A program made the translations under genes and the position numbers. DNA of 64,000 nt, from assembly GCA_016788665.1 (NCBI GenBank), contig JAEUSF010000006.1, positions 4,401 through 68,400 on the forward strand. The letters are read 5' to 3'. The stretch's first letter is position 1. The number at the start of each line of letters is the position of its first letter. Positions 4,286 through 60,689 of this stretch are shown here, piece by piece. The notes under the pieces were generated by a model. That model searched no databases. It saw only the letters and a program-made list of their open reading frames with translations, and was not told the origin of the DNA. This stretch comes from Candidatus Doudnabacteria bacterium (GTDB lineage: Bacteria > Patescibacteriota > Doudnabacteria > UBA920).

Positions 4286-5530
4286 TCAGGATCGGTGTGC
4301 GGACAAAGAAGCATCGGGTTCGTAAACCATCTCATTACTTCCGCATATTTCTCCAAACTTTAAAGCACTATAACGTACTTTACGCTTTAAAAGACCTTCG
4401 CGGTCTATTTCTACAAGCCCAAAACGTGGACCAAACCCCATGAGCCACTCGAAGTTGTCGGTCAGGCTCCAGTACAAATAGCCTTTTACATTTACTCCCT
4501 GTTTAATGGCTTTGTGAACAAAATACAAATGGTCCTTTATAAACTTTTCTCGCTTTTTGTCATGCCTGTCTGCTATGCCATTCTCGGTTATGTAAACAGG
4601 TTTCTTATATTTTTTTAACGACAAAAGTACTCTTTCTAAACCTTCCGGATGTATACCCCAACCCAAGTCCGTCTGCTCGTGACCCGAATGGCTTTTGCGT
4701 CTTTTTCCAAGCCAACCCACATGGTGATGAAAATAATAATTGACTCCGACAAAATCACAAAAGTCTATGGTACGGTTTAAAATGTATTCGTTAGCCAAAT
4801 AATGCGCCAAGTATGTAATTGGCTCGCTAAAAATATTTACCGCTTGAATATCGGACAGGTGAAAAGCCATACTAACAGGCTTTTGAGAATGCATCCTGAG
4901 TATTTTATAAGACCGGTTGTGTGCAGAAATTAAATTCTGTAAAACTCTAAAAGATTTAAAAAAACTTTTTTCCTGAGGCGGATACAAACCCAAAAAATAC
5001 GAGAAAGAAACATAAACTTCAGGCTCGTTAAATGTCAGCCAAAAATCCACCTCTTCGCCAAATCTTTTGGCTATCACTTCAACATAGCGTAAGAAAAATT
5101 GAATATTTTCTTTTTTCTCAAACGCCCTTTTTTCAGCAAACCAAACCGGATTAGTATAATGGTGCAAAGTTAAAAATACTTTCAGTCCATTAAACCTGGC
5201 GGACTGAAGCATTTTTTCGTAATGGTCTAAAACATGTTGGTCAAACTCCCCTTCTTTGGGCTCTACCCGTGCCCACTCTATGCCAATGCGAATAGAGTTA
5301 TGGTTTAAACTTTTTGCTAACGCAAAATCTTCTTCGTAACGGTTATAAAAGTCACAAGCTTGTCCGGACATAAAATCTTCAGGTTTCTTACCCGCAGACT
5401 CAAGTACCCCTTGGCGCCCCAAACTTTTTTCCCACTTATACCAATCACTGTAAATATTACCCCCTTCGGTTTGGTAAGCGCTATTTGCCGTGCCCCACAA
5501 AAATCCTTGGGGAAATTTTAATTTTTGCAT
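4286..5530 (-). CDS. GH1 family beta-glucosidase
   Basis: FPQGFLWGTANSAYQTEGG N-terminus, catalytic TFNEP and ITENG motifs of glycoside hydrolase family 1. Confidence 0.9.
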   Translation of the reverse strand: MQKLKFPQGFLWGTANSAYQTEGGNIYSDWYKWEKSLGRQGVLESAGKKPEDFMSGQACDFYNRYEEDFALAKSLNHNSIRIGIEWARVEPKEGEFDQHVLDHYEKMLQSARFNGLKVFLTLHHYTNPVWFAEKRAFEKKENIQFFLRYVEVIAKRFGEEVDFWLTFNEPEVYVSFSYFLGLYPPQEKSFFKSFRVLQNLISAHNRSYKILRMHSQKPVSMAFHLSDIQAVNIFSEPITYLAHYLANEYILNRTIDFCDFVGVNYYFHHHVGWLGKRRKSHSGHEQTDLGWGIHPEGLERVLLSLKKYKKPVYITENGIADRHDKKREKFIKDHLYFVHKAIKQGVNVKGYLYWSLTDNFEWLMGFGPRFGLVEIDREGLLKRKVRYSALKFGEICGSNEMVYEPDASLSAHRS

Positions 5531-6459: not shown

Positions 6460-6534
6460 GGCGCTATCGTCTAATGGTTAGGACAGGTGGTTCTCATCCA
6501 CCAAATCGGGGTTCGATTCCCCGTAGCGCTACCA
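6460..6534 (+). tRNA. tRNA-Glu (anticodon CUC)
   Basis: Cloverleaf folded by hand: acceptor GGCGCTA/TAGCGCT (G1-U72 wobble), D arm GTC..GAC, anticodon stem GGTGG/CCACC with loop TTCTCAT, T arm CGGGG-TTCGATT-CCCCG, encoded CCA. Confidence 0.8.
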
Positions 6535-6540
6535 ATTTTA

Positions 6541-6570
6541 AAAACCCAACCATAAGGTTGGGTTTTTAAA
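6541..6570 (+). terminator. rho-independent terminator after tRNA-Glu
   Basis: AAAACCCAACC-ATAA-GGTTGGGTTTTT hairpin plus T-run. Confidence 0.7.
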
Positions 6571-6666
6571 ATTGTCCCGAGCGAAGTCGAGGGGCACTAA
6601 ATTTGTTCCGAGCGCAGGCCCGCTCTGCGGGCTGTAGTCGAGAGACACAAATGTTATAATATAGAC

Positions 6667-6921
6667 ATGTTTTACTTTTATCTACTCCGCACTCCCAACA
6701 ACACCCTGTACACCGGCGTCACAAGTAATCTTAGAGACCGAGAAAACCGTCACAACACTGGCCGCGGTTCAATTTGGACAACTACGCACCACGGCGGAAA
6801 AATTGTCTACACCGAAACTTTTCCTACTTTATCTAAAGCCCGCCTCCGAGAAACCCAAGTCAAAAAATGGTCTCGGGTTAAAAAAGAAAATTTGATCAAA
6901 ATGTCAAAAGTCAAGACTTGA
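6667..6921 (+). CDS. GIY-YIG nuclease family protein (small, UPF0213-like)
   Basis: FYFYLLR..NTLYTGVTSNLRDRENRHN..KIVYTETF..SKARLRETQVKKWSRVKK matches GIY-YIG catalytic module; TATAAT 7 nt upstream of the ATG and no SD, suggesting a leaderless or very short leader. Confidence 0.8.
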   Translation: MFYFYLLRTPNNTLYTGVTSNLRDRENRHNTGRGSIWTTTHHGGKIVYTETFPTLSKARLRETQVKKWSRVKKENLIKMSKVKT

Positions 6922-7107
6922 TCCCCTGTACTCTACTTTACCAAAGCAAGAAAAGTTTTCCATCCCAACTTCGCTAAAGCTTCTTCGGGCAAGCTGTCTC
7001 GACTTGGTCTAAAATGCTTCACCCTCGTGGCGGAGCTTTTCTTTCGTTAACAAAGATCATCTTTGTTTAAAAATAAAAAAAGCCGCAAAGTTCGCGACTT
7101 AACAAAG

Positions 7108-7572
7108 TTAGTCCGTTAAGGACTCCACAATCCCGCCTATAACCGCTCCGCAAGCTTCCAAGGCCGCATCCACCGCTACCTCAAAAACTGTTTCAGCAAC
7201 AGCCCCAGCAAGGCTCCATCCGGCTTCGCCCAAATCGGTACCGGTTACGGTAGATGGGTTTACAACCGGCGCAACTGCCGGCAAGGCACTTAAGGCTTTA
7301 CCGACTGCCTTTTTCGGCAGTTTTTTTGCTACCCGAATTTTGAGACTTCCCTTCTTTTTTTGCAGGGTCCCCTCCTTTTCAGCAGTATTATATTTTAAAA
7401 CAGGGCTTTGTTCAAGCCTAATATAATTTAACAAATTCCAGTAAATAAAAAACCAAGACTTGTTTAAGTTCTTGGTAAAGAAATTTCCGACTCGAGTATC
7501 ACAAGCACCTTTTTCAGGTACTGGTGGTCTGGGTAGTCTGCCGACAACAGTTTCAGCAAAGGAGCCACCCAC
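7108..7572 (-). CDS. hypothetical Ala/Val/Gly-rich protein, GC-rich; true start unresolved
   Basis: Track ORF starts at GTG; an internal TATAAT plus AAGGAGGGG precedes an in-frame CTG at about 7360, with no ATG; overlaps the upstream ORF in another frame. Confidence 0.3.
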   Translation of the reverse strand: MGGSFAETVVGRLPRPPVPEKGACDTRVGNFFTKNLNKSWFFIYWNLLNYIRLEQSPVLKYNTAEKEGTLQKKKGSLKIRVAKKLPKKAVGKALSALPAVAPVVNPSTVTGTDLGEAGWSLAGAVAETVFEVAVDAALEACGAVIGGIVESLTD

Positions 7573-8039
7573 GGGTTCAGGCTTTCGGCCAGAATCTGAC
7601 GAAGGTCAGCTTCGTCCAGCATACAGCCCAGGACCGCCAAAGCAATAGCGGCCGCCTCGTCCAGGTCCGGACAGTAGCTTGCAACTGCCAGCGCAATGGG
7701 CGCACCGAGGTGCACAAAAAATATGCCGCCCGCCGGAGTGTATGCACAAAGGCTTGTACACTGATTTTGGTTCTCTGCAACTGCAGCTACCCTCCACTTT
7801 GCAGACCCGCTCCAGAGCTGGAGGTCGACGAAGGACCATTTACACTCTGGCGCCATTAAAAGCTCATTTAGCAATGGCGGAGCGTACTTCAACCGGTCCC
7901 TGCTTTCACCTCCGGCCGAAACAAGAGTTACGACGCATCCTCTAAAAGGCCTTTTGCGGCCTTCGTTGAATGCGTCGCCGGCTAGCGCCTTTATGACTGA
8001 GCGCGCGTAGTTCCGAGTTCTTCCAGAAAGGGACGCCAT
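7464..8039 (-). CDS. hypothetical protein, GC-rich foreign-looking gene
   Basis: 191-aa ORF with GGAGG 7 nt upstream of the ATG at 8039; no recognisable domain. Confidence 0.45.
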   Translation of the reverse strand: MASLSGRTRNYARSVIKALAGDAFNEGRKRPFRGCVVTLVSAGGESRDRLKYAPPLLNELLMAPECKWSFVDLQLWSGSAKWRVAAVAENQNQCTSLCAYTPAGGIFFVHLGAPIALAVASYCPDLDEAAAIALAVLGCMLDEADLRQILAESLNPWVAPLLKLLSADYPDHQYLKKVLVILESEISLPRT

Positions 8040-9988: not shown

Positions 9989-11053
9989 TTATTGCTGAAA
10001 GAGCCTTCGAGCCGTTTCAACTTTCTCCCTTAGGCCTTCAGTCTCCTTCTCTTTAGCTTGGAGCAAGCTGCGAAGATTTTCGTTCTCCTGAAGCAGATGA
10101 GTGACCTGTGCGAGCAGATTCTCCATTGCCTGCTGGGAATCTGCAGTTGCCTTTTTGGCTGCCGTTACAGCTTCGGCAAAAGCCGCCGAGGCACTTTGCG
10201 CGAGAACCTGTTCAATTGTCGGGGTGGATGGTTTCGCACCTTTTACCGACCGTGGCATACGAAGCTGAATTCCGCGGCTTTTTTCCAACGTTTTAATCCT
10301 GCCGTACAAACTTGCGTCCGAAATACTACTCCTATTAAACCCCATCGAACGGATTTCGCGGATAACATCCCGCTTGCTGCCCATGTGCCGGTCGTAAATG
10401 GAGCTCAACCCTGCTAAAACATCTTCGAGCCGGGGCCTGCTCATGACGGCAGGCTTCGGTCCCTCTGTTGTTGGTTGCCCGACGGATGTTTCCGGACTTA
10501 GCAAGGCCGGATGCGGTTGTTTTTCATGGGCTTGGTTCAGTCTTTTAGCCCCAGACTGATCAGCCATTGCTACGGTAACGGGCGCGGGTGTATGTTGAAG
10601 TTTCTCAGCATCAGGCTTAGGCAAGCCTACTGTCTTTGTGACCCCACCCAAACTTAAGCAGATGACACCTTTTTTGTCGCCTTGGAAAGATTCGACCATC
10701 CTATGCAAGAACGACGCAGCGTCAACCACCAACATTACGCAACCGGTCTTCTTACTACTAACCAATTTTTCAATGCTGGAAAGGATCTCGTCGCCAAGCC
10801 TCCCATTAACAGCAACAAACTTTGCGTTTGGCGAAAGCTGCGTTACATGCTTAGCCTGGTATACATTCCAGAAGACAACACGCCCATCAAGCTGGGCCTT
10901 GGACTTCTCTACCGCTGAATCATTTGCTCCGACTACTACCATATTTTCGCCGGGCTCGAGTCTGAATTCGAAGGACGTACCCTCGACTGCGGACGTTGCG
11001 ACAGCACTCATATACGTTCCTTGCAAAAAAGACACAAAGCCCGTAAAAGCCAT
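9989..11053 (-). CDS. hypothetical protein, possibly NYN/LabA-like nuclease domain with C-terminal coiled coil; GC-rich
   Basis: N-terminal MVVVGANDS...VMLVVDAASFLHRMV..GVICLSLGG loosely resembles the NYN fold; C-terminal heptad coiled coil; alternative start MSAVATS at 11011 has an AAGGA SD; terminator hairpin 9938-9965 on the minus strand. Confidence 0.4.
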   Translation of the reverse strand: MAFTGFVSFLQGTYMSAVATSAVEGTSFEFRLEPGENMVVVGANDSAVEKSKAQLDGRVVFWNVYQAKHVTQLSPNAKFVAVNGRLGDEILSSIEKLVSSKKTGCVMLVVDAASFLHRMVESFQGDKKGVICLSLGGVTKTVGLPKPDAEKLQHTPAPVTVAMADQSGAKRLNQAHEKQPHPALLSPETSVGQPTTEGPKPAVMSRPRLEDVLAGLSSIYDRHMGSKRDVIREIRSMGFNRSSISDASLYGRIKTLEKSRGIQLRMPRSVKGAKPSTPTIEQVLAQSASAAFAEAVTAAKKATADSQQAMENLLAQVTHLLQENENLRSLLQAKEKETEGLREKVETARRLFQQ

Positions 11054-26338: not shown

Positions 26339-26378
26339 GCAAAATACCTCAATACTAGCTAGTATTGAGGTATTTTGC
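26339..26378. repeat. 40-nt perfect palindrome GCAAAATACCTCAATACTAG|CTAGTATTGAGGTATTTTGC (copy 1)
   Basis: Read directly; the second copy at 35078-35117 matches at 39 of 40 positions. Confidence 0.9.
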
Positions 26379-26701
26379 TAATTTAAGAAACCTTTGTTAA
26401 AACGCTAAATTTATAACTACAAACCAAACTCAAAATAAATAATTATATAAATTCTTAGTTATTTAAAATATCCCGTCACATCTATTACTTTTACAGCAAT
26501 TTGTAAACAATCGAAGCCTATTTTTACTTTACCAATTTTATACAATACACTCATAACTTACAAATTCTACATAAATTTACTTTTATTATATAACTTTGGA
26601 TCGGAAGACTTTTAATAAAACAAGGTGCCACTTATTAATCAATATGTCATATTGAAAATTTCTGCTGAATGCTCTATACTGTATTGGATTTGCTTTATAC
26701 G

Positions 26702-26728
26702 TTGGGGTGTCGTCCCGACTAGCCGGGA
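26702..26728 (+). repeat. direct repeat copy L: tRNA-Gln 5' fragment (TTGGGGTGTCG) fused to the GTCCCGACTAGCCGGGA hairpin
   Basis: 11 nt identical to tRNA-Gln positions 27003-27013, followed by a near-palindrome; copy R at 27111-27145. Confidence 0.85.
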
Positions 26729-26744
26729 TAAGGAGCCGCACAAC

Positions 26745-26983
26745 ATGTACACGACTTATATATTACAAAACCCTTTGGGAAAGCTTTATATAGGTTACTC
26801 CAGTAATCTTGATGTTCGGATTAGTTGGCATAATTCGGTAAATCAAAATTTACCAGAAATAAAGGTCCATGGAAGTTGTTTTATAGTAAAGAATTTCTGA
26901 CAAAATCTGAAGCTATCAAATACGAATATTATCTTAAATCTTTAAAAAGTCCGGAGTATATTAAAAAACTTATTGTGAAATAA
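26745..26983 (+). pseudogene. GIY-YIG nuclease gene with a 1-nt frameshift
   Basis: MYTTYILQNPLGKLYIGYSSNLDVRISWHNS then, after a single-base frame change at about 26833-26837, GKSKFTRNKGPWKLFYSKEFLTKSEAIKYEYYLKSLKSPEYIKKLIVK*; the joined product is a canonical about 80-aa GIY-YIG protein; AAGGAG SD at 26730. Confidence 0.75.
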
Positions 26984-27098
26984 TTTTTTCCTTTCACCTT
27001 CATTGGGGTGTCGCCAAGTGGTAAGGCAGGGGCCTTTGAAGCCCCCATTCGTAGGTTCGAATCCTACCACCCCAGCCAGGTGAAAGGAAAAAATTATT
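26979..27098. repeat. 20-bp perfect inverted repeat enclosing tRNA-Gln
   Basis: AATAATTTTTTCCTTTCACC (26979-26998) is the exact reverse complement of GGTGAAAGGAAAAAATTATT (27079-27098); the tRNA sits in the 80-nt loop. Confidence 0.9.
27004..27078 (+). tRNA. tRNA-Gln (anticodon UUG)
   Basis: Acceptor TGGGGTG/CACCCCA with U1-A72 as in bacterial tRNA-Gln, D arm GCC..GGC, anticodon stem GGGGC/GCCCC with loop CTTTGAA, T arm GTAGG-TTCGAAT-CCTAC, discriminator G, encoded CCA. Confidence 0.8.
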
Positions 27099-27110
27099 TT
27101 ATAATAGTAA

Positions 27111-27145
27111 GGTGTCGTCCCGACTAGTCGGGACCACCCCAGCCA
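27111..27145 (+). repeat. direct repeat copy R: GGTGTCG + perfect palindrome GTCCCGACTAGTCGGGAC + duplicated tRNA-Gln 3' end ACCACCCCAGCCA
   Basis: 13 nt identical to the tRNA 3' end (27066-27078); followed by terminator hairpin CACCAATAAACATTGGTG plus T8 (27154-27179). Confidence 0.85.
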
Positions 27146-27318
27146 AAAGAATTCACCAATAAACATTGGTGTTTTTTTTATGGTATAAATTATTTTGAAC
27201 CAAACTTTCAACACTTTCTAGGGGTGGACGTTTTTCTACATTTTTGCTAAAATACAAGGTCTCTTGTCAATGCTGCGGCAGTAGGAAGACTAGAGTGAAT
27301 GTAAAGGAGGTGAGAAGA

Positions 27319-27753
27319 ATGCAAAGTATTCGCGCGTTTGTACCGTGGACGTTTTTTAGAAAGCTGCATCCGTTCAATGCGGAGCTGCTGAAAAGCAACG
27401 CTATGCTTGTCAGAGCATGCGGCGCTAAACCCGCAGACGGCAGCATTTTACGGTCTAGGGGTTATTTGCTTTTTGGAAACGGAGTGGCCACACTCCTTCC
27501 TCAAGCAGAGACACTCGCACAAGGACTGAACGGCGTAAAAGGTTACGTTATGGAATTCGTCCAAAAGCGTGACCCTCGTAATGTCGCCTACTGGGAAGTC
27601 CAAATCTCAGTAGACCAGACGCGGGTCGAGCGGGATTGGAGAATTGAAGCGTCCTGCTTGCCGCCAGATTCGGACGAGGGCATCCACTTCACGCCCCTCG
27701 TCGAACAGCAAGGCAAACCCGGACAGTATTTCTACCTTACTTGCGTAGCTTAG
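27319..27753 (+). CDS. hypothetical protein, GC-rich (gene A of islet)
   Basis: ATG at 27319 with AAGGAGG at 27304-27310; 144 aa; no recognisable domain. Confidence 0.5.
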   Translation: MQSIRAFVPWTFFRKLHPFNAELLKSNAMLVRACGAKPADGSILRSRGYLLFGNGVATLLPQAETLAQGLNGVKGYVMEFVQKRDPRNVAYWEVQISVDQTRVERDWRIEASCLPPDSDEGIHFTPLVEQQGKPGQYFYLTCVA

Positions 27754-27868
27754 GGCGGACAGCAATGTTCGCTAAACCGTAACTTGGGGTTTGTTGTCCA
27801 AATGCGGCCACCTTGTGTGGCTTTCCATAATGTGACAAACCCTCCTTAACCCCAAAAGGAGATTTGTC

Positions 27869-28354
27869 GTGAGAAACTTAGTCTACGTATCCGGGGCATT
27901 GAGCGATGTCCCCTCGGCCATTCGGCCTCTGTACCTCGACTTTTACGAGTTGATCGGACGGAAAGTCGAGACTCTCGGACTTGCTTCATATGTCCCGCAC
28001 CTCAACACAGACCCGGTGCGGCACAAAAACGTAACTCCGAAACAGGTCGACCTCATCGACCGGACAGCAGTCACCTCAGCTATGCTGGTCGTAGCCGTGG
28101 CAGACAATCCGTCGCTCGGTGTCGGTATTGAGGTCGAGATGGCCTTCCATGCTAACAAGCCGGTTGTACTTCTCTGCCAACGAGAACGAATCGAGCAGCG
28201 GCTCATTAGCCGCCTAATCCGCGGCAACCCTGCAGTCATCCACGAGATTGTTTATGTGGATTTCGCCGATGCGCTCTCTTTACTTGAAACGTTCATTCTT
28301 TCATTCCTGAAAGAACAGGCGGAGAGTATTCTTCCAAAGACGCTCAAAGTCTAG
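27869..28354 (+). CDS. DNPH1/Rcl-like 2'-deoxynucleoside-5'-phosphate N-glycosidase family protein (nucleoside 2-deoxyribosyltransferase fold)
   Basis: GTG start with AAGGAG SD; VYVSGALSDV N-terminal phosphate-loop-like segment and VAVADNPSLGVGIEVEMAFHANKPVVLL..ISRLIRGN closely parallel the DNPH1 motif PSLGVGYELG..A..NK (recalled from memory, not searched). Confidence 0.6.
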   Translation: MRNLVYVSGALSDVPSAIRPLYLDFYELIGRKVETLGLASYVPHLNTDPVRHKNVTPKQVDLIDRTAVTSAMLVVAVADNPSLGVGIEVEMAFHANKPVVLLCQRERIEQRLISRLIRGNPAVIHEIVYVDFADALSLLETFILSFLKEQAESILPKTLKV

Positions 28355-28551: not shown

Positions 28552-29808
28552 TTATTGGTTGCCGTACAGCTTCGCTTCACACTCCACCTTACCGGTAGAA
28601 GCCGCGTTGGTTTGCGCGGTAAACTTAACGGTAAAGCCGGTGTAAGTCTTGTTGCTAAACGACACCGAAGGCGCTGCGTAGCCTGCAAACTCCTGCACGC
28701 CACACCCCGACAGCGAGTAGTTGGCTACCCCCGGGAGAAAAGGCGTGAGGAAATTGACCACGTAGGTGCAGGTGGATCCTGCGACTGCCGCGGTCGTACA
28801 GTTACTCTGCGGGTCGGCGGCGGTAACCATACGCACGCTACTAAGTTTGGTTAGAACCCCGGTAGCCGTGCGTGTGTTGATGATGCTGCAATCCTTACAG
28901 GGCGTAACGCCGTCAGGACTTGAACCATTCGAGATGGTTGTGTTGTAAGCGGGAGTTTCCCCATTAGGACCCGCCGTATCTTCCGCAACAACGCCGCCAG
29001 CTCCGTTTCCGGAAGTCTGGACTCCATCCACAACGTGGTCAAGCCCTCGCAAACTCAGCCCCCTACTTCCATTCGTAACCCTGAGGCTGCGAAATGTGAA
29101 ATAGGTTGAACCCATAACGTAAGCACCGTAACCACTTCCGGAGAGGTTTATGTAACCTCCCCACACGTTTACGCGCACAAAGTTAGAGTTCGAAGACGGA
29201 TTTGATGGCACCGTTACCAACCCGTAGGTGAACACTCCGGTCCACACAACCTCGTGTAGGTCAATATCGCCGGTATAGCAAGGAGCGCTACCACCCTCCA
29301 CCGTGCAGAGCCCAGCAGGGCTCCAATAGGTATTCTTAAGCACCAAGCCATCGGTGCGGTAGCGGGTAGTATTTCTGTTCGCGAATATCACGTTCCGGAG
29401 TTTCGCCCGGATCATGTTGTCGAGCACCACAGCATTCGCAGTGTTACTGTTTGAGGTAGTCAAGTCGAAGATGATATCCTCGAACTGCACCCCGTAGGAA
29501 AACATGCCCGGAAAGCCCATTGTGAAGATGGTGCTGCAACCATTGCAGCTGAGCCTTACCATCCCGCCGTTCTTGGGCCGAAACCGCACAACCACCTCTG
29601 AGGGAATGGTATTCCAAAGCCCGACCGAGATTTTACAATCGGACTCGAACAGAACCTCGCCTCCCCCAGACAAGACAATCAGGGGGTAATTCTGTTGCAG
29701 CGACAACGACGCAGTACCATCTGCGCATGACGCTGCGGTTACCACGTAGCTTGTGGCAGCCTGTGTACTGGCTACGAGAGCCAGAAACAGGACAAGAAGT
29801 CTAAACAT
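28552..29808 (-). CDS. secreted Cys-containing Gly/Ser/Thr/Asn-rich protein, possible right-handed beta-helix; GC-rich
   Basis: ATG at 29808 with AAGGAGGAG SD; signal peptide MFRLLVLFLALVASTQA; repetitive N/G/S/T-rich segments typical of beta-helix adhesin/lyase folds; fold not proven. Confidence 0.55.
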   Translation of the reverse strand: MFRLLVLFLALVASTQAATSYVVTAASCADGTASLSLQQNYPLIVLSGGGEVLFESDCKISVGLWNTIPSEVVVRFRPKNGGMVRLSCNGCSTIFTMGFPGMFSYGVQFEDIIFDLTTSNSNTANAVVLDNMIRAKLRNVIFANRNTTRYRTDGLVLKNTYWSPAGLCTVEGGSAPCYTGDIDLHEVVWTGVFTYGLVTVPSNPSSNSNFVRVNVWGGYINLSGSGYGAYVMGSTYFTFRSLRVTNGSRGLSLRGLDHVVDGVQTSGNGAGGVVAEDTAGPNGETPAYNTTISNGSSPDGVTPCKDCSIINTRTATGVLTKLSSVRMVTAADPQSNCTTAAVAGSTCTYVVNFLTPFLPGVANYSLSGCGVQEFAGYAAPSVSFSNKTYTGFTVKFTAQTNAASTGKVECEAKLYGNQ

Positions 29809-30246
29809 TAACTCCTCCTTATGGGAGCTAGTGCCCGCACCTATAGCAAGGCGCAGATTTCCGAAATTATGACAGATTCCAGAGTGCACATTGAGGTCTC
29901 AGCGCAAATGACAAGCGCTTTATTTTGACCAGTGCCCGTTGGCACCTCTGTTGGCACAGAGGGTAATTATATTAAATATTCATTAAATTGTAAATAGTGC
30001 CCATATCCTAGCGGACAATTTACGCGAATTACCCACTAGGAAAATACTATAAATTAACTATACATGTAATAGCTTTTTAAAAGGTTGTTTGGTATTATTA
30101 CTAAAGTTAATAACAACTTTAGAATACCTTTTTAAACAAAAAATGTGTAATAAAATTACTAATGTAAAATAATTTTTAATATATTTATATTCTAAACATA
30201 AGCAAAACAATTTTATTTCATAATATACTTAGTTCAATACTCCCAT

Positions 30247-59380: not shown

Positions 59381-60232
59381 TTACTTATGCTCGCTATCTA
59401 TCTGACCTCTTAAAGTCCTTAATTCCTCTAGAGCTACTTTTGCCTGCTCCTTATTTGGCGGACTACCGTGCCATTTAAAATCACCTTCCATAAAATCCAC
59501 GCCCTTCCCAGGTATAGTATGCGCAATTATCACCGTTGGTTTTTCATAAATGGCTTTTGCTTCCATACATGCGTTTATAATAGCTTGATGATTATGTCCA
59601 TCCACCTCCAAAACATGCCAATTAAAAGCTTCGTATTTGGCTTTTAAATTATCTAAAGGCATAACATCCTCTGTGTAACCGTCTATTTGTATATTATTGC
59701 GATCAATTATTGCCGTAAGATTATGAAGTTTGTACTTTCCTGCAAACATAATCGCTTCCCAAACCTGACCTTCCTGCTGCTCGCCGTCAGACATAATTAA
59801 ATAAACCCTCTGAGACTTTTTTCTGTCCATATAAAGTCCGTAGGCCATACCAACCGCCTGACTTGCTCCTTGTGCTAAGGGTCCTGAAGAAGTTTCTATC
59901 CCAGGCAAGCTTAAATTATGCGGGTGGCCGTGCAAACGGGTTCCAAATTTTCTTAAAGTTTTAAGTTCATCTTTCATAAAATAACCTGCCTCCGCCAAAC
60001 TTGCATATAAAACGGGACATATATGCCCACACGACAAAACTAACCTATCACGTTCTTCTAGCTTGGGTCTTTTTGGGTCATGATTCAGGACACTAAAATA
60101 CAAACAAGCAAAAATATCGGCCATACCTAAAGGCCCGGCACTATGTCCGCTACCTGCTTCTAAAAGCATTTGCACTATATCTTGCCGTATATCGTTGGCT
60201 TTGTATTTTATTTCGTTTATAGATAACTTCAT
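59381..60232 (-). CDS. transketolase, N-terminal (TPP-binding) subunit
   Basis: GSGHSAGPLGMADI..., GDG-type TPP/metal-binding region. Confidence 0.85.
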   Translation of the reverse strand: MKLSINEIKYKANDIRQDIVQMLLEAGSGHSAGPLGMADIFACLYFSVLNHDPKRPKLEERDRLVLSCGHICPVLYASLAEAGYFMKDELKTLRKFGTRLHGHPHNLSLPGIETSSGPLAQGASQAVGMAYGLYMDRKKSQRVYLIMSDGEQQEGQVWEAIMFAGKYKLHNLTAIIDRNNIQIDGYTEDVMPLDNLKAKYEAFNWHVLEVDGHNHQAIINACMEAKAIYEKPTVIIAHTIPGKGVDFMEGDFKWHGSPPNKEQAKVALEELRTLRGQIDSEHK

Positions 60233-60354
60233 AATATTGAAGCAACCTCTCCCTGCCCTCTCCTAAAAAGGAGAGGGAAAGGCTACAACTGCATTCCTCT
60301 CCCCTCCTAGAATAGGAGGGGTGTCCCGATTTATCGGGACGGGGTGGTAGAGAC

Positions 60355-60689
60355 CTACGATAAATACCTTTTTATTTCTTGAACAACTCCATTTAAATCA
60401 CTTAATACTTCTTTATTTTGGAATCTAATTATTTTAATACCCTGACTCTCTATAAACCCTGCGCGTTTTATATCATTCTGATAGCTTACAGCATTATCAT
60501 GAGTAGAGCCATCTAGCTCAATTCCCAAACGTAACTCTGGGCAATAAAAATCTAAAGAATAAATTCCTACACCATATTGCCTTCTAAACTTTTTACCTAG
60601 TTTATTACCTTTTAATTGTCTCCAAAGTATAATTTCCGGAAGGCCAAGGTTGTTTCTGAGTTTTTGCCTTAGGCCTTTTTAATTAGCAT
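60355..60689 (-). pseudogene. DUF559 (Vsr-like restriction-endonuclease-fold) gene with an N-terminal frameshift
   Basis: Minus-strand translation LRNNLGLPEIILWRQLKGNKLGKKFRRQYGVGIYSLDFYCPELRLGIELDGSTHDNAVSYQNDIKRAGFIESQGIKIIRFQNKEVL matches DUF559; the only ATG (MLIKKA, 60689) is in another frame and hits a stop after 6 codons; one frame change would restore a ~113-aa protein. Confidence 0.65.

Follow-up and report, generated by a model that had tools for sequence, protein, structure and literature searches.

How does a gene for a small nuclease come to be lodged inside a tRNA transcription unit? This question is raised by a locus in the 64,000-nucleotide (nt) stretch of Candidatus Doudnabacteria contig JAEUSF010000006.1 analyzed here (hereafter the window), where a frameshifted gene for a stand-alone nuclease of the GIY-YIG superfamily lies between two hairpin-bearing fragments of tRNA-Gln, together with an intact tRNA-Gln gene. 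Based on the anatomy of this locus, its comparison with a syntenic relative that lacks the nuclease gene, and the recurrence of the same tRNA linkage and the same hairpins across several phyla, we consider it reasonably probable that positions 26652-27179 form a single transcription unit whose resident tRNA-Gln was colonized by a selfish stand-alone GIY-YIG nuclease of the UPF0213 family, with an Slx1-like fold, and that the unit is a decayed member of a wider family of such modules. All features that a first-pass annotation had listed here are present, at or within 1-2 nt of where it had put them, and its general notion of a mobile-element-like module coupling a GIY-YIG gene, a tRNA and duplicated tRNA pieces stands; several of its more specific readings are revised below.

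Anatomy of the disrupted tRNA-Gln unit

The unit comprises the following features; coordinates are positions of the window unless a locus code (L001 etc.) is given.

26652-26680, forward strand: promoter-like site TTGAAA-17-TATACT, with 10 of 12 consensus matches, conserved relative to the region 5' of the plain tRNA-Gln in L080
26702-26735 (repeat part 26702-26728), forward strand: L, the 5' remnant of the resident tRNA-Gln, with the same layout in L001
26745-26983, forward strand: UPF0213-type GIY-YIG gene, frameshifted, with ATG at 26745 and TAA at 26981-26983, encoding 79 amino acids (aa) once corrected
26971-26999, forward strand: left arm of an inverted repeat, covering the GIY-YIG stop codon
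27004-27078, forward strand: intact tRNA-Gln(UUG) with encoded CCA (ARAGORN; Rfam RF00005, 66.2 bits)
27078-27106, forward strand: right arm of the inverted repeat (repeat search and fold)
27111-27145, forward strand: R, a hairpin-bearing tRNA fragment made of tRNA positions 4-10, a palindrome and positions 64-76
27154-27179, forward strand: intrinsic terminator hairpin with T-run (terminator prediction), closing the transcription unit

In L, tRNA positions -1 to 10 (26702-26712) are followed, directly after G10, by the hairpin TCCCGACTAGCCGGGA (26713-26728), which belongs to the class that we term A (TCCCGA..TCGGGA) and stands in place of the D-loop CCAAGTGG. L then continues with the 3' remnant of the D-arm, TAAGG-AG (26729-26735), which is the tRNA TAAGGCAG minus one C; the open reading frame (ORF) of the nuclease begins 9 nt later, its ATG 16 nt after the hairpin. 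The AAGGAG that had been read here as a Shine-Dalgarno sequence is there and can double as such, but since L continues past its hairpin with D-arm sequence, it is derived from the tRNA. R is the most reduced hairpin-bearing fragment seen, tRNA positions 11 to 63 all being replaced: positions 4-10 (27111-27117) are joined through the perfect class-A palindrome TCCCGACTAGTCGGGA (27118-27133) to positions 64-76 with the CCA (27133-27145). L and R share a direct repeat of 23 nt with one mismatch, whose spacing of 405 nt is explained by what lies between the stop codon and the second hairpin, namely a genuine tRNA with its private inverted repeat. Both the 11-mer TTGGGGTGTCG and the 13-mer ACCACCCCAGCCA are present in two copies, and the 18-nt palindrome GTCCCGACTAGTCGGGAC, of which no occurrence is expected by chance in the window, was found three times at up to 3 mismatches.

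The nested tRNA-Gln has the marks of a functional gene, with a cloverleaf, a UUG anticodon and a score of 66.2 bits on RF00005 against a gathering threshold of 29; it starts 21 nt after the GIY-YIG stop codon and is 92% identical to the tRNA-Gln of L080. Its initial U had been called unusual, yet every tRNA-Gln that we fetched begins with T, and U1-A72 is a usual feature of bacterial tRNA-Gln. The perfect stem of 20 base pairs (bp) described around this tRNA is real, but its arms are in fact 29 nt long and 93% complementary, with a perfect core of 21 nt; the left arm does overlap the stop codon of the nuclease gene (TAA 26981-26983), as had been noted. Folding of the stem-closed tRNA, which had been proposed as a check, bore the structure out: the segment 26965-27185 folds at -100.6 kcal/mol (z = -10.5) into a cloverleaf atop a long stem, with the R hairpin and the terminator after it. 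The stem of about 29 bp is private to the window, with weak 11-nt and 8-nt versions in L005 and L002, and was ruled out as a feature of the family by its absence from the closest relative, L001, and 50 other loci; in this copy it is perhaps a processing or insulating helix. As the promoter-like site 5' of L and the terminator 3' of R are the only such sites found in the unit, the tRNA-Gln is probably matured from a transcript of about 490 nt that includes the dead nuclease gene.

The site without the module in a syntenic relative

The next relative of a 502-aa oxidoreductase encoded near the unit (67% identity) lies on contig L080, which carries on one flank an AIG2-like gene, a DUF1761 gene and an adjacent 139/161-aa ORF (70% identity), and on the other, at the same place, an orthologue (31% identity) of the 445-aa protein encoded by the third of the genes rich in guanine and cytosine (GC) downstream of the unit (28552-29889); a DNA block of 1.5 kb is shared at 72%. 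Between these flanks L080 has only a plain full-length tRNA-Gln(UUG) and a terminator; neither a GIY-YIG gene, nor the palindromes or the long stem, nor the other two GC-rich genes (27244-28354) were found at the L080 locus. This is the presence/absence pattern of a free-standing, Seg-like homing endonuclease, as seen in one relative at about 70% identity.

The comparison also bears on the origin of the two stubs. Window positions 26650-26712 align with L080 5256-5318 (63 nt, 82.5%), a segment that spans the promoter-like site and the first 11 nt of L, and the region 5' of the L080 tRNA-Gln holds a TTGAAA-17-TATAAT-like promoter. Based on this alignment of the L080 upstream region into L, we identify L as what is left of the resident tRNA-Gln at its 5' end, with the native promoter still attached, rather than as half of the target-site duplication for which it had been taken. 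R is probably the 3' end of the resident gene with its terminator, as judged by position (tRNA 64-76 followed by AAAGAA, a hairpin and a T-run, an order also found in L080), its sequence identity not being strong. Relative to these flanks, the tRNA-Gln unit as a whole has opposite orientations in the window and in L080, and hence more than one event separates the two. Only L080 was informative as an empty site: the contexts of P0153, P0165 and P0158 showed no synteny at the tRNA-Gln locus, and an exact look-up of the DUF1761 neighbor and of P0151 gave no match.

Two further observations concern these surroundings. Between the 161-aa ORF and the tRNA-Gln promoter lies a bidirectional terminator with an 18-bp perfect palindrome (26339-26378), which has a counterpart in L080 (5443-5499, 93%). 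The GC-rich genes absent from L080, where the corresponding span is 5140-5310, are 27244-27753, which has no recognizable domain, and 27869-28354, which has a weak nucleoside 2-deoxyribosyltransferase-like match.

Linkage to tRNA genes across the family

Homologous loci were chosen by the peptide pattern [YFS]T[RK]N[KR]GPW.., which gave 79 fetched genome loci (81 loci in the hairpin counts), and a second, independent set comprised 69 more divergent metagenome loci, making 150 in all. A tRNA lies on the same strand within 400 nt of the ORF in 62 of the 79 genome loci (33 upstream, 26 downstream and 3 overlapping) and on the opposite strand in one; most of the genome loci without a nearby tRNA are cut by a contig end. 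Within 200 nt of the ORF, tRNAs are 36 times as dense as elsewhere in these loci. The metagenome set repeats the pattern, with a same-strand tRNA in 39 of 69 loci and an opposite-strand tRNA in none. The hosts include Saccharibacteria and other members of the Candidate Phyla Radiation (CPR), Bacteroidota, Ignavibacteria, Acidobacteriota, Chloroflexota, Lentisphaerota and Marinimicrobia. The gene occurs patchily, and some of its copies have decayed. In the window, both tRNAs carry a GIY-YIG gene of this kind.

Extra copies of parts of the neighboring tRNA flank the ORFs, often identical over 25-47 nt, and their traces are visible even in the protein library: homologous ORFs, run by gene callers into tRNA sequence, often have N-termini such as GSNPT, RFESLHPS and VVPTSRD, which are translated 3' parts of tRNAs, and P0003 consists of two tandem copies of VVPTSRD..RFESLHPS plus GIY-YIG, VVPTSRD being the L hairpin in translation. 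Rfam scans of the loci found no family other than tRNA covering the modules and detected no intron. The Rfam Pedo-repair motif, which lies between tRNA and GIY-YIG-like genes in Pedobacter, was dropped as a lead; its model gave no match at the gathering threshold in L022 and L031, and none at E <= 5 in L022 3400-4600.

The typical order places the ORF between a genuine tRNA and a hairpin-bearing tRNA fragment, and the side is kept with some strictness. Among loci with the tRNA upstream of the ORF, 16 have the ORF-proximal hairpin solely on the downstream side, 1 solely on the upstream side and 2 on both; among those with the tRNA downstream, 14 have it solely upstream and none solely downstream. 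The median distance from the end of the hairpin to the ORF match is 24 nt, and that from the stop codon to the start of the hairpin is 4 nt. Tandem units of fragment plus ORF recur with periods of 317-378 nt in L056, L060, L023, L008, L011 and L020, arrays of 77-132-nt fragments without the ORF occur in L035 and L009, and tandem two-copy ORFs are found in P0003, P0004 and P0006. The window unit shares both hallmarks of these modules, a same-strand tRNA within 400 nt and class-A hairpin fragments beside the ORF, in the layout of a 5' stub with hairpin, the ORF, and a hairpin with 3' stub; there is no array in the window.

Near-full-length tRNA-Gln-like copies stand 3' of the genuine tRNA-Gln in L002 (4340-4600), L005 (4340-4475) and L013 (4330-4460), with a hairpin at the D-loop and insertions of 39-57 nt in the T-loop, and in L002 the anticodon arm is replaced as well. 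The disrupted tRNA-Gln copy of L013 differs in sequence type from its intact counterpart, which would fit import of the intact tRNA as a replacement. ARAGORN reports hairpin-bearing fragments as tRNA-Stop(tta), tRNA-SeC(tca), tRNA-Tyr(ata) or tRNA-??? (L004 3946-3994 and 4244-4322, L033 3510-3591, L052 764-839, L015 4508-4582).

Two hairpin classes that follow the protein clade

An unbiased count of perfect 6-bp stems near the ORFs against the rest of the loci brought out two hairpins. By this stem count, class A occurs in 29 loci, with 51 copies near the ORF and 4 in the rest, which is four times as large, and class B (TCCGCC..GGCGGA) in 25 loci, with 40 copies near the ORF against 1 far from it. 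When the 81 loci were assigned to classes, 32 had A only, 25 had B only and none was mixed. The same two hairpins are found inside tRNA fragments of at least 10 isotypes in at least 6 phyla, enriched about 50-fold beside the ORF.

The classes separate in a neighbor-joining ordering of the proteins, the window protein falling in the class-A clade beside L001 and L002, and the nearest-neighbor protein is of the same hairpin class in 55 of 57 cases (permutation p <= 1e-4, uncorrected for phylogeny). Each class spans several phyla and many isotypes and is linked neither to host nor to tRNA type. This is seen most directly in the tRNA-Gln modules of the CPR, where the hairpin sits at the same D-loop position and is of class A in L001, L002 and the window and of class B in L005 and L013. 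As class tracks the protein clade across isotypes, the hairpin travels with the gene, and the tRNA-like flanks are taken from the local tRNA. The direct repeats had been described as built from tRNA-end fragments; the palindrome in them is instead a conserved hairpin that moves with the nuclease clade across phyla and tRNA types.

The position of the hairpin within the tRNA is likewise restricted. In most cases it replaces the anticodon arm (about 26-45): tRNA sequence breaks off before it at position 25-29 in 41 of 51 cases and resumes after it at 34-48 in 45 of 56. In Gln, Glu, Gly and Ile cases the D-loop is replaced, and in two Phe cases the hairpin lies in the T-loop. On the Rfam tRNA model, one hairpin-bearing copy of full length, in L052, reaches 42 bits, its hairpin taking the place of the anticodon arm in the alignment. 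In the closest relative of the window protein, L001 (67% identity), the upstream piece consists of tRNA-Gln positions 1-10, a class-A hairpin, TAAGGCAGCGCCC and the ATG. All 24 distinct class-A hairpins with room for a seventh stem pair are complementary at it, through five pair types and at total lengths of 14-26 nt, and this complementarity despite varying length indicates that stem formation itself is conserved, beyond the sequence. Two simpler origins of the hairpins were tried and discarded. Their lengths of 14-26 nt and the lack of a U33/purine-37 loop pattern exclude that they are real anticodon arms of odd tRNAs. A palindromized scar of a local anticodon loop was considered since TCGGGA matches the loop of tRNA-Pro(CGG), yet the hairpin stands in Gln, Val, Phe, Ser, Leu, Gly and Ile contexts.

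The GIY-YIG protein

In the assembled window sequence the nuclease gene lacks one base after 26836, where it reads TC-GGT against TCC GGA in L001; the gap may be a true deletion or an error of sequencing. The expectation that a single frame change would restore the gene was borne out: only after correction does the 79-aa product match the superfamily profile PF01541 (1.1e-17, 64.5 bits against a cut-off of 22.6). In our alignment (A1), Y5, Y15, G17, R25 and H29 are invariant, and N30 and E61 nearly so. An exhaustive search of representative sequences aligned residues 1-78 with homologues of about 80-110 aa, 4809 of them at E <= 1e-3, the best at 59% identity; a word-index protein search with the corrected sequence gave no match. 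Among PDB sequences only the UPF0213 proteins 1ZG2 (5.6e-11) and 1YWL (3e-5) were recovered.

The AlphaFold model of the corrected protein is one compact domain at a mean confidence (pLDDT) of 90.5. Foldseek placed 1ZG2 at the top and UPF0213 proteins first, followed by Slx1 on branched DNA (6SEH, 6SEI and 7CQ3; probability 1.00, TM score 0.62-0.69, 24-29% identity), with UvrC far behind. Being a single domain of 79 aa that is nearest to them in sequence and fold, the protein is a member of UPF0213 (BH0048/EF2693-type, YhbQ-like). It has no separate DNA-binding domain of the kind that characterizes Seg-like homing endonucleases, its catalytic domain covering profile positions 1-74 of 78.

Proposed mechanism and alternatives

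We propose that in both stubs the interior of the tRNA would have been replaced by the signature hairpin TCCCGA-loop-TCGGGA, and that the intact tRNA-Gln copy between them would keep the cell supplied, being cut from a long transcript by RNase P and RNase Z; the unit would be expressed by read-through from the tRNA promoter. The nuclease, with about 80 aa and a catalytic domain only, would act like Slx1 in recognizing DNA by structure, its target being the cognate stem-loop and possibly those of tRNA genes as well. We infer recognition of this kind because the protein has an Slx1-like fold and no binding domain, and because a single clade serves at least 10 isotypes, which argues against sequence-specific recognition of tRNA genes. 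The break would fall within tRNA-homologous sequence and be repaired by recombination with tRNA genes, whereby the hairpin-tRNA fragment plus ORF would be copied or integrated, giving direct repeats and arrays. Crossover 5' or 3' of the hairpin would yield the two mirror-image architectures, and repeated events or unequal exchange the arrays. We place these modules with the tRNA-associated free-standing GIY-YIG selfish nucleases, and there is a real chance that they are a new kind of mobile element.

Several points weigh against this proposal. Cleavage of the hairpin is suggested, for every member of the family, by co-inheritance and fold, and co-inheritance of hairpin and protein is expected of any linked pair and is no proof of recognition. 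As GIY-YIG enzymes hydrolyze DNA and do not rejoin it, any move would have to be completed by host repair. Neither exact hairpin stands beside the ORF in about 34 of the 81 loci, 24 of 81 have no exact class-A or class-B hairpin between -500 and +700 nt, and most of the more distant metagenome loci have neither; hence either there are further hairpin classes or the hairpin is dispensable. The sample was defined by one peptide pattern and covers a part of UPF0213, and, the window copy being frameshifted, current activity cannot be read from it. The single syntenic relative stands at about 70% identity with the tRNA unit inverted, and the history is more complex than one insertion.

A more far-reaching version, which we hold to be possible though unlikely, treats the segment of about 300-340 bp comprising a hairpin, about 24 nt, the 80-aa GIY-YIG ORF and a hairpin as an autonomous mobile element with a stem-loop-recognizing Slx1-like nuclease. 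The nuclease would then cut its own clade-specific hairpin as well as D, anticodon or T stem-loops extruded from heavily transcribed tRNA genes, and host recombination would swap the tRNA arm for the hairpin of the element and set the ORF beside it, which would explain how one clade comes to lie at at least 10 tRNA isotypes. In a bolder form, the transcribed hairpin-tRNA chimera may be a self-retargeting RNA guide, with the hairpin as protein handle and the tRNA arms as guide. That hairpin-bearing tRNA-like RNAs work with the nuclease, be it as handle plus guide, leading the nuclease to tRNA genes through base pairing, or as a tRNA-mimic decoy or antitoxin comparable to the repeat arrays of type III toxin-antitoxin systems, we judge rather unlikely. 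Such a partnership would suit a 79-aa protein without a nucleic-acid-binding domain and hairpins that sit exactly at the places of tRNA arms with the tRNA-like fold kept (42 bits in L052); it would also suit an ORF that is always co-oriented with the tRNA, probably co-transcribed, and preceded by a hairpin end at a median of 24 nt, as well as the tracking of protein clade by hairpin class and the arrays of 77-132-nt fragments beside the gene in L035 and L009. However, most fragments lack the 5' acceptor strand and hence have no complete tRNA-like fold and are no RNase P substrate, and R in the window retains only 4 of the 7 acceptor pairs. Moreover, all characterized GIY-YIG enzymes are, to our knowledge, protein-only DNA nucleases, and we know of no RNase activity in GIY-YIG proteins.

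The first-pass annotation had regarded L and R as the two copies of an ancestral 39-nt target, the Gln acceptor stem plus one hairpin, duplicated when a cassette of GIY-YIG gene and tRNA was inserted. L and R do have 23 nt in common and do bound the disrupted resident gene, and when fused they fold at -24.6 kcal/mol (z = -4.6); yet we find this origin extremely improbable. The empty site that was to be sought in relatives does exist in L080, but it holds a full, plain tRNA-Gln and not the fused minihelix, which contradicts the idea; D-arm sequence follows the L hairpin; no such minihelix occurs among the 150 loci; and the hairpin, far from being a local target, is a conserved motif that recurs with many tRNA types and across many phyla. 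Very improbable, too, is the other origin it had raised, an integrase-type island at the 3' end of the tRNA-Gln with R as the attachment-site duplication and the GC-rich genes of 27.2-30 kb as the island. A 13-nt copy of the tRNA 3' end does lie 55 nt 3' of the tRNA, GC content rises from 0.36 to 0.49-0.52 past 27.2 kb, and two GC-rich genes (27244-28354) are absent from L080. But R borders this islet on the side of the tRNA and not on the distal side, the window contains the 13-mer nowhere else, none of the three islet ORFs has an integrase or recombinase domain by which a tRNA-site island would be known, and the third GC-rich gene has its orthologue at the same place in L080; L, the hairpins and the pattern across the family would all be left unexplained. 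Finally, the locus might reflect ordinary decay, with debris of tRNA duplication, an unrelated repair or housekeeping GIY-YIG gene in a tRNA operon, and hairpins that are terminators or REP-like. This reading draws on the proneness of tRNA regions to recombination, on T-runs after some hairpins (L022, L071) and on the usual repair-like annotation of UPF0213, and it is improbable in view of the same two hairpins in at least 10 isotypes and at least 6 phyla, about 50-fold enriched beside the ORF, their coupling to the protein clade, the strict co-orientation and sidedness, the absence of the module from the syntenic L080, and arrays and frameshifted copies typical of selfish elements.

Comparison with known systems

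The closest documented behavior to that proposed here is that of SegB in phages T4 and T6, whose GIY-YIG gene also lies amid tRNA genes and is inherited with them. The phage protein SegB has about 220 aa and includes a DNA-binding part, whereas the present family is cellular, about 80 aa long and has the catalytic domain only; the two are compared at the level of the superfamily. Nor does SegB come with a conserved hairpin or with tRNA copies in which a hairpin replaces an arm. Encoded in a tRNA cluster, SegB makes double-strand breaks in tRNA-containing DNA, and recombination of a tRNA's 5' region with the 3' region of segB gives rise to tandem arrays of tRNA plus segB (PMC13096335). By sequence and fold, UPF0213/YhbQ proteins (1ZG2, 1YWL) are the best matches of the corrected protein, and in the literature we found no association of UPF0213 with tRNAs or hairpins. 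Slx1 offers the likeness of a structure-specific nuclease, which fits action on stem-loops; it differs in having a RING domain and needing Slx4.

A small nuclease gene flanked by stem-loops that co-vary with the enzyme, in strand-specific orientation, is also the arrangement of the IS200/IS605 and REP/RAYT systems, in which the hairpin-forming DNA is the recognized substrate. Their enzymes, HUH/Y1 transposases, rejoin DNA by way of covalent intermediates, which a GIY-YIG hydrolase cannot do, and the flanks of the present modules are tRNA-derived and their repeats direct. Group I introns of tRNAs with homing-endonuclease ORFs resemble the modules in placing a selfish nuclease at the anticodon region while tRNA function is kept; Rfam, however, detects no intron here, the tRNA next to the ORF carries no interruption, and the copies that do are truncated and unspliceable. 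Genomic islands at tRNA 3' ends likewise have a partial tRNA duplicated beside the tRNA gene, but the modules have no integrase, their repeats include 5' parts, they measure 0.3-0.4 kb and their internal arms are replaced. The claim that the arrangement was undescribed held up: in the full-text literature we found no tRNA-linked UPF0213 genes and no tRNA fragments with a hairpin in place of an arm, with the limit that subscription journals were thinly covered and a prior description is possible. Searches on UPF0213/YhbQ returned nothing relevant, the related matches being only mitochondrial or phage homing-endonuclease papers.

UPF0213 is a very large family, for which two structural-genomics structures were deposited in 2005 as entries without assigned function. 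For one large subfamily of it, the present analysis offers a testable proposal, namely a selfish nuclease in tRNA transcription units tied to a cognate hairpin. For annotation, the modules yield tRNA pseudogenes that are miscalled by tRNA finders, a likely source of spurious suppressor, Sec and odd-anticodon tRNAs in metagenome-assembled genomes, as well as ORFs with spurious N-terminal extensions that read through tRNA sequence. The modules may also drive duplication, inversion and turnover of tRNA genes in small (CPR) genomes; in the window, an apparently single-copy tRNA-Gln would now rely on read-through of a dead parasite gene. If structure-specific or RNA-assisted targeting is true, the family would represent a minimal nuclease with a novel mode of target recognition.

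A second module and other sites in the window

The only other tRNA in the window belongs to a second module.

6460-6921, forward strand: tRNA-Glu(CUC) module, consisting of tRNA-Glu (6460-6534), a terminator hairpin, two motifs and a GIY-YIG gene (6667-6921)

Its GIY-YIG gene is intact and encodes 84 aa (PF01541, 9.1e-14) that are 36% identical to the first protein and belong to a different subclade. The two tandem CCGAGCG..GTCGAG motifs at 6574-6650 read TTGTCCCGAGCGAAGTCGAGGGGCAC, and TTGTTCCGAGCG followed by a 19-nt GC hairpin and GTAGTCGAGAGACAC; the motif resembles the class-A hairpin with a bulged A and, among the 150 loci, was found beyond the window only in L075.

A class-A-like hairpin, GTCCCGATTTATCGGGAC, lies at 60323-60340 inside GGAGGGGTG..CGGGGTGG, adjoined by two other GC-rich hairpins (60230-60600). 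It is directly 3' of an N-terminally truncated ORF on the reverse strand for a DUF559 (Vsr-like) endonuclease (PF04480, 1.5e-21, profile positions 32-108), and a second family of small nucleases, DUF559, may use the same kind of hairpin. Finally, two patches, at 7001-8000 and 10001-11000, stand out by a GC content of 0.50-0.52 (background about 0.38); one of the two lies just 3' of the tRNA-Glu/GIY-YIG module.

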